Source: a phage. From it: DNA of 64,000 nt. The notes under the pieces were generated by a model. The model was not told the DNA's origin. It did not search any database and saw nothing but the letters and a program-made list of their open reading frames with translations. A program made the translations under genes and the position numbers. The stretch lies in sequence record PX915678.1, one strand, 5' to 3'. Below are positions 51,530 through 52,596 of this stretch, piece by piece (position 1 is the stretch's first letter; the number at the start of each line of letters is the position of its first letter).

Positions 51530-52390
51530 TTACACCGCCATCTTTCCTTTAATTGGCGGGTGAGATACATAGTTGTTAAGAACAAAATTATGCGGCTTTG
51601 CGAATTGACTCAACCAAAATACCTGCGATTCTGTGTCCCATTCATCAAATTCATCTGGAAATTTTAATTGTAATTCGCATAAATCCATAGGTTCACGACG
51701 CAAAATTTCTTTACATTGTTCTACGTGATTCATATAGATATGAGTATTACCACCAGAAAATATCAAATCTCCAGGAATAAGATTACACATCTTAGCTACA
51801 ATATGAACTAACGTAGCATATGATGCAATATTAAATGGAAGACCGAGGAAAACATCTACCGAACGTTGATACCACTGCAAATCCAAATAGCCATTACGCA
51901 CATTAAACTGATAGAACATATGACAAGGTGGTAATGCCATATATTTAAGTTCAGCTGGATTCCATGCAGAAACAATTTGACGCCTATCATTTGGTAGTTT
52001 TTTAATACGATCAACAACTTCTATAATTTGGTCTACACCACCAAAATCGCGCCATTGTTTTCCATAAATTGGACCAAGTTCACCACTATGGTATCCTAAA
52101 TCTTTTGCTTGATTTTCGTAATTTTCATCCCAGACTGTTTTGCCTTGAATTAATGAATCATGTTGAATTAATCGCAAATCATTGACATTTGTGCTTCCCG
52201 ATAAAAACCATATTAGTTCAGCAATGCAAGCTTTCCAGGCGAGCTTCTTAGTCGTTACTGCAGGAAAACCTTTAGTTAAATCCCAGCGTAATTTAGTACC
52301 GAACAAAGCAATTGTTCCTGTGCCTGTTCGGTCATCGGTTTCGTAGCCATTTTCTAGGATATCTTTAATTAAAAATTGGTATTGTTTCAT
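51530..52390 (-). CDS. td: thymidylate synthase, uninterrupted
   Basis: From the internal ATG: [26 protein letters not shown]...; catalytic Cys motif ALPPCHMFYQF; 286 aa continuous, no intron. Confidence 0.95.
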   Translation of the reverse strand: MKQYQFLIKDILENGYETDDRTGTGTIALFGTKLRWDLTKGFPAVTTKKLAWKACIAELIWFLSGSTNVNDLRLIQHDSLIQGKTVWDENYENQAKDLGYHSGELGPIYGKQWRDFGGVDQIIEVVDRIKKLPNDRRQIVSAWNPAELKYMALPPCHMFYQFNVRNGYLDLQWYQRSVDVFLGLPFNIASYATLVHIVAKMCNLIPGDLIFSGGNTHIYMNHVEQCKEILRREPMDLCELQLKFPDEFDEWDTESQVFWLSQFAKPHNFVLNNYVSHPPIKGKMAV

Positions 52391-52596
52391 TAGTTCATCC
52401 AAGAATACGTAGAAGGATATTTGGCAAAGTTAGGCTTATATCCTAATTTAACCATTTGTTTTGCTTTGCGAGTAAATCCTAAAGAACGCTCACCTTTAAG
52501 ATATTGTTTTGGTGTCATAGGCCCTTGATGCATCTGCCGACAAATAAAAAGAGCCATAGCGTTAGGAACATCCTTAACTTTTAATTTATTGCTCAT
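52390..52596 (-). CDS. hypothetical basic protein inserted between frd and td
   Basis: 68-aa ORF; its ATG overlaps the frd stop (ATGA) and its stop overlaps the td ATG (TAATG). Confidence 0.6.

Follow-up and report, generated by a model that had tools for sequence, protein, structure and literature searches.

In phage T4, the dihydrofolate reductase gene frd runs directly into the thymidylate synthase gene td. What, then, is the 68-codon open reading frame (ORF) that separates the same two genes in the phage sequence PX915678.1, where did it come from, and what might its product do? The locus lies in the 64,000-nucleotide (nt) stretch of PX915678.1 that we analyzed (the window), which belongs to a Tequatrovirus of the pSs-1 species group, its nearest record being Shigella phage Sfk20 (98.7% identity over 24 kb). 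A first-pass annotation of the window had taken this frame, hereafter ORF68, for an insertion particular to this phage. The comparisons reported here make it likely, in our judgement, that ORF68 is a genuine and dispensable accessory gene of enterobacterial myoviruses, and that its place between frd and td is a polymorphic cassette slot. The features of the locus are as follows:

51530..52390, minus strand: td, thymidylate synthase, 286 residues, PF00303 (E 1.6e-93), uninterrupted
52388..52392, minus strand: TAATG overlap of ORF68 and td, made of the TAA at 52392-52390 and the td ATG at 52390-52388, with one A common to both
52390..52596, minus strand: ORF68, 68 residues, member of phrog_9550, small and basic, three helices predicted
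52392..52597, minus strand: 206-nt segment that is not in T4, its placement ambiguous by up to 5 nt because AATGA stands at both ends
52593..52596, minus strand: ATGA overlap of frd and ORF68, made of the frd TGA at 52595-52593 and the ORF68 ATG at 52596-52594
52593..53174, minus strand: frd, dihydrofolate reductase, 193 residues, PF00186 (E 3.5e-19)

ORF68 and its junctions with frd and td

The frame is present as annotated, and its product is indeed rich in lysine and arginine (10 K and 3 R versus 1 D and 1 E; isoelectric point (pI) 10.3). The ORF finder starts td at a TTG (position 52402, 290 residues), a mechanical extension that we rejected, as the alignment with T4 fixes the start at the ATG at 52390. 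ORF68 has the features of the coupled genes of the frd–td–nrd operon, namely stop and start codons that overlap at either end, with neither promoter nor terminator detected inside; indeed, no promoter-like or terminator-like site was detected within or beside 52390-52596. From its sequence, ORF68 is thus predicted to be part of the frd–td–nrdA transcription unit. Of the translational coupling that had been proposed for both sides, the overlaps are there to be seen, and they suggest the coupling itself.

The junction between ORF68 and td (TGGATGnACTAATGAAACAATA) is conserved in the window, in phage Marfa (Marfavirus), in Serratia phage 4S and at a locus of the metagenomic T4-like contig L011. 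The TGGATG at 52393-52398, which encodes W66-M67 of ORF68, lies 10-15 nt upstream of the td start, and the last codons of ORF68 are kept at the nucleotide level in Marfa, 4S, CIP9 (Kanagawavirus) and L011. The GGA in these codons may double as a weak ribosome-binding element for td; if it does, the C-terminus of ORF68 would be constrained by that role (SWM in T4-like members, SWF in phAPEC8-like members). No paralogue of ORF68 was found in the window, and an Rfam search of the window returned no match.

Comparison with the T4 junction

The direct overlap in T4 that the first-pass annotation had described is confirmed by the T4 record (NC_000866), in which frd ends at 145109 and td starts at 145112 within a 4-nt ATGA. 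When the window is aligned pairwise with T4, the flanks are nearly identical and T4 displays one clean gap of 206 nt: the T4 junction reads ...GTATATAAATGAAACAATACC, and that of the window ...GTATATAAATGAGCAAT...GAACTAATGAAACAATACC, with AATGA flanking the extra segment on both sides. The size is therefore 206 nt and not the 204 nt first given, and the description 'in-frame-neutral' has no meaning here, as frd and td are separate frames. The two phages have the same ATGA stop/start arrangement, but the ATG within it is that of td in T4 and that of ORF68 in the window, where the td start lies 206 nt further on. Moreover, the 150 nt upstream of the ORF68 start match almost exactly those found ahead of td in T4. 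ORF68 would then be transcribed on the frd–td–nrdA polycistronic message, and its translation would begin at the initiation region that td uses in T4, with td reinitiating at the ORF68 stop.

The two phages also differ in td itself, which contains an intron with I-TevI in T4 and none in the window. Since ORF68 and I-TevI are both present in 58 records, ORF68 occurs irrespective of the td intron, which rules out a mutual exclusion of the two by homing co-conversion.

Conservation of the ORF68 family

ORF68 matches the phrog_9550 profile of PHROGs v4 from end to end (residues 1-68 on 1-68 of 68; E 1.3e-45, 154.5 bits), and phrog_9550 is the same protein with nothing different, filed there under unknown function. 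By tblastn, ORF68 was found in 238 phage records, 89 of them with at least 99% identity, 28 with 60-80% and 72 with less than 60%; the frame is thus more than a chance one. Many records carry a 100% identical ORF68 at the frd–td position under the name 'hypothetical protein', and carriers so annotated include Shigella phages Sfk20, pSs-1 and Sf21, Yersinia phages fPS-90 and PYPS2T, and Escherichia phage JS98. Annotation of the gene varies: it is unannotated in JS98 (NC_010105), JS10 (EU863409) and Paracelsus (MZ501096), truncated to 42 residues through the choice of an internal Met start in IME339 (NC_055741) and Klebsiella phage EI, and called 'flagellar biosynthesis protein' in PYPS2T (MH809535) and 'DUF4858' in Shinka (MZ502379). 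Neither of these two names is borne out by Pfam scans of ORF68 and its homologues.

When 5.8 billion proteins were searched with a profile, the family fell into 43 clusters at 90% identity, all of them stand-alone proteins of 42-125 residues with no Pfam domains and no informative names; only 6 representative clusters were present among 1.84 billion proteins. These deep homology searches returned no fused or annotated relative, and the family closes at about 43 clusters. In alignments that covered T4-like, phAPEC8-like and metagenomic members, 17 positions are invariant or nearly so (N3, K4, K6, V7, P11, L16, R20, Q24, K34, G35, G40, M48, L51, G52, Y53, P55 and Y60). Compared with Marfa, CIP9 and 4S by the Nei-Gojobori method, ORF68 displays a nonsynonymous divergence (dN) of 0.14-0.30 and a ratio of nonsynonymous to synonymous divergence (dN/dS) of 0.08-0.17, with synonymous sites near saturation; over all pairs of genera with a finite dS, the ratio is 0.08-0.28. 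In dN, ORF68 resembles td and falls below frd. As judged from these comparisons, ORF68 is a protein-coding gene under purifying selection.

Alleles of the frd–td slot

We then asked how often the junction is occupied. A 401-nt query spanning the T4 junction matched 515 records, from which an evenly spaced sample yielded 57 records that span the junction. The junction is empty, as in T4, in 5 of these (~9%), carries the 206-nt insert with ORF68 in 13 (~23%) and an insert of ~416 nt in 39 (~68%). The count for ORF68 agrees with that of the first search, in which 134 of 570 Tequatrovirus records cover it. Note that a 50-nt junction query is unsuited to exact counts of the T4 type, because RB32-type genomes, owing to a 9-bp repeat, can match it in two separate parts. 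The empty junction is thus the least common of the three alleles sampled, limited to T4 and a small number of other Tequatrovirus records. ORF68 is accordingly no special acquisition of the phage of the window, being found also in at least four other T4-like genera; of the possibility, raised at the outset, that T4 and its relatives carry the same ORF, the half concerning the relatives proved correct and the half concerning T4 did not.

The ~416-nt insert is RB32ORF229c, a 115-residue ORF present in RB32, RB14, T6, RB3, PP01 and others. Its GenBank note reads 'flanked by 9 bp repeat', and the repeat, TAAATGAAA, is T4 junction sequence. RB32ORF229c is homologous to CIP9 gp061 (43% identity, E 7e-29) and more weakly related to the ORFs that follow frd and precede ORF68 in 4S, CIP9 and Marfa; we refer to these ORFs together as the X family:

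RB32 (L007), 822-1169: RB32ORF229c / X family
RB14 (L008), 824-1171: RB32ORF229c / X family
Marfa (L004), 2143-2496: RB32ORF229c / X family
4S (L005), 2124-2504: RB32ORF229c / X family
CIP9 (L006), 1826-2504: X family, two tandem paralogues

The members of this family (110-126 residues) have no Pfam annotation in the contigs examined, and their GenBank names vary ('glucose-1-phosphate adenylyltransferase', 'homing endonuclease', a second 'dihydrofolate reductase'). Like ORF68, RB32ORF229c is dispensable, sits at the frd–td junction and is bounded by short direct repeats of T4 junction sequence. Unlike ORF68, to which it is unrelated in sequence, it is not translationally coupled, being separated from frd by 20 nt and from td by 45 nt. 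By contrast with this one-for-one replacement, Marfa, 4S, CIP9 and L011 have one or two X homologues of ~110-126 residues that separate frd from ORF68, upstream of ORF68 and not in its place. X and ORF68 do not form a two-gene module, as X is present neither in the window nor in the phAPEC8-type contexts. Taken together, the alleles indicate that the frd–td junction is a polymorphic slot, whose empty T4 state is the rarer one and probably derived.

Genomic neighbourhoods of the family

In all the T4-like genomes inspected from this angle (Sfk20, fPS-2, Marfa, CIP9, 4S and L011), ORF68 lies directly upstream of td and overlaps or abuts its start. For the two Mosigvirus phages JS98 and JS10, the frd side only was seen, and there the tblastn match overlaps the frd end. 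The phAPEC8-like phages (Stephanstirmvirinae) carry homologues of ~43% identity, as do at least four further contexts from uncultivated phages. These homologues from outside the Straboviridae are located in long same-strand arrays of small ORFs, almost none of which has a Pfam match, and never beside td. The family is narrow and confined to enterobacterial myoviruses. Its most divergent member (P0039, 92 residues, with a C-terminal extension) is encoded on an uncultivated phage contig (L014) that also carries, ~4.3 kb away, a gene resembling Tad2 of the anti-Thoeris family (286-669, minus strand), a proximity that may be coincidental.

Origin of the polymorphism

In the scenario that we favor, the ancestral order would have been frd–X–ORF68–td, as it persists in Marfa, 4S, CIP9 and L011. 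Tequatrovirus genomes would have retained X only, ORF68 only or neither of them, T4 representing the fully deleted state. The empty junction of T4 would be the expected product of a deletion between short direct repeats that contain ATGA, and the alleles could have been reshuffled by homologous recombination among co-infecting relatives. Because more distant relatives carry both ORFs, T4 most likely lost both, and on this distribution of sequences the most likely direction of the change is a loss in the T4 lineage, opposite to the insertion first proposed.

A recent insertion of ORF68 into a junction that was originally direct, as in T4, is unlikely. The direct repeats of T4 junction sequence that flank both slot cassettes (AATGA for ORF68, TAAATGAAA for RB32ORF229c) can be read as a target-site signature, and ORF68 is less diverged from Marfa at synonymous sites than td is, as lateral transfer would allow. 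However, at least five genera, between which synonymous divergence is near saturation, have ORF68 at the same site, the distant relatives hold X and ORF68 together, and the empty allele, which such an insertion would make ancestral, is the one limited to T4 and a few of its congeners.

Possible functions of ORF68

Searches for families, defence functions and folds gave few leads. For the window protein and 24 homologues, neither Pfam nor NCBIfam returned a family (E up to 1-10) or a match to a helix-turn-helix sequence family; the PADLOC-DB defence models returned 0 families at E up to 10, and a profile search of the PDB sequences no match at E up to 10. AlphaFold2, run on two different alignments, produced the same three-helix topology both times, with a predicted local distance difference test (pLDDT) score of 72.8 and 75.2. 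In the model, the helices span residues 13-24, 29-38 and 43-50, and the C-terminal tail packs on the N-terminal segment. Foldseek detected no significant neighbour in the PDB (best E 4.2), homeodomains and integrase core-binding domains being among the top non-significant ones, and in BFVD only the orthologue of ORF68 from a Klebsiella phage.

We tentatively favor, as one possibility among several, a host-directed accessory protein, acting in takeover or counter-defence, which would bind a component of the Enterobacterales host rather than take part in deoxynucleoside triphosphate (dNTP) synthesis. We are led to it because divergent members have no td nearby and are placed in arrays of small ORFs that lack annotation, because the family is confined to phages of Enterobacterales, and because ORF68 is dispensable among close relatives. 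ORF68 would bind its partner through a conserved helical face together with the N-terminal segment and the aromatic/proline motifs of the C-terminus. Dmd, Arn, Alc and AsiA are small early T-even accessory proteins that bind host targets. As far as general knowledge of these proteins goes, ORF68 is like them in size class, dispensability and patchy distribution, and in its occurrence in small early ORF arrays in other phages; it differs from them in that our searches found no characterised protein resembling it in sequence or fold.

A small basic nucleic-acid-binding protein or a transcriptional or translational regulator, with helices 2-3 resembling a helix-turn-helix, seems to us rather unlikely. 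The charge of the protein (pI 10.3, 13 K/R versus 2 D/E) is in line with this idea, as are the conserved G-F-T turn that precedes helix 3 of the predicted three-helix bundle and the homeodomains and integrase core-binding domains among its structural neighbours, all of them non-significant. Yet the profile and fold searches neither support nor contradict it, so that this suggestion, which was also that of the first-pass annotation, comes down to basic charge.

We find it improbable that ORF68 is a partner or regulator of Td, produced in fixed proportion through coupling and binding Td, td mRNA or the dNTP-synthetase complex. Its stop overlaps or abuts the td start in all the T4-like genomes examined, and the upstream neighbour varies (frd or X), as a specific tie to td would have it. 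However, functional Td is made without ORF68 in T4 and in most Tequatroviruses, divergent members occur away from td in phAPEC8-like and other phages, and vertical inheritance would by itself keep any gene of the syntenic T4 core in a fixed position. We attach a similarly small probability to a further proposal, according to which ORF68 would be a new functional partner of Td or a new counter-defence protein and the polymorphism of the slot, where it alternates with the RB32ORF229c family, would result from host-specific selection; were this true, the slot would be a site for small exchangeable accessory cassettes inside an essential nucleotide-synthesis operon.

Finally, a non-functional remnant, such as the decayed DNA-binding tail of a homing endonuclease, or a chance ORF might be expected in a T4-like region rich in homing endonucleases (I-TevI, mobE, I-TevIII and segG in T4), but it is effectively refuted by the full-length conservation of ORF68, by a dN/dS well below 1 and by the fact that 43 of the 43 family clusters are stand-alone short proteins, none of them a domain of a larger protein, in addition to which Pfam gave no GIY-YIG, HNH or NUMOD match for ORF68 and no nuclease domain in the longer family members.

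Several points weigh against our preferred account, a host-directed accessory gene lost from the T4 lineage. The 5-base microhomology that includes ATGA is generic at coupled gene junctions and is no proof of deletion over insertion. Between the window and Marfa (L004), the proportion of synonymous differences (pS) is 0.55 for ORF68, a value based on ~45 synonymous sites only, versus 0.87 for td; the lower pS of ORF68 hints that the cassette was exchanged laterally at a later time or that ORF68 is under added constraint at the nucleotide level, and part of the distribution of ORF68 may stem from lateral exchange and not from descent and loss. The host-directed role is a weaker inference, drawn solely from gene neighbourhood and taxonomic range, and a td-related function could instead account for the unvarying link between ORF68 and td in T4-like phages. 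A literature search on the locus, RB32ORF229c and phrog_9550 found nothing relevant.

Other variable features of the region

The operon of the window differs from that of T4 in other respects. In the stretch at 47478-50972, nrdB is a single ORF of 392 residues, with no intron or I-TevIII, unlike in T4; the gap between nrdA and nrdB is only 51 nt and thus, again unlike in T4, holds no mobE. The window therefore lacks three mobile elements that are present in the T4 operon, namely the td intron with I-TevI, the nrdB intron with I-TevIII, and mobE. Between frd and gene 32 (53174-54731, minus strand), the window carries five small ORFs (81, 111, 80, 121 and 83 residues), versus three in T4 (frd.1-frd.3), and this stretch is another variable region.

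Significance for T-even phages

ORF68 is already catalogued as a hypothetical gene, stands unchanged in many deposited genomes and is an ordinary accessory gene; the result opens no long-standing question. In screens for host-targeting small phage proteins, the family to which it belongs would be a reasonable, if unremarkable, candidate. What does change is an expectation centred on T4: the textbook overlap of frd and td is a minority allele, and most T-even relatives hold one of two small accessory ORFs at the frd–td junction.
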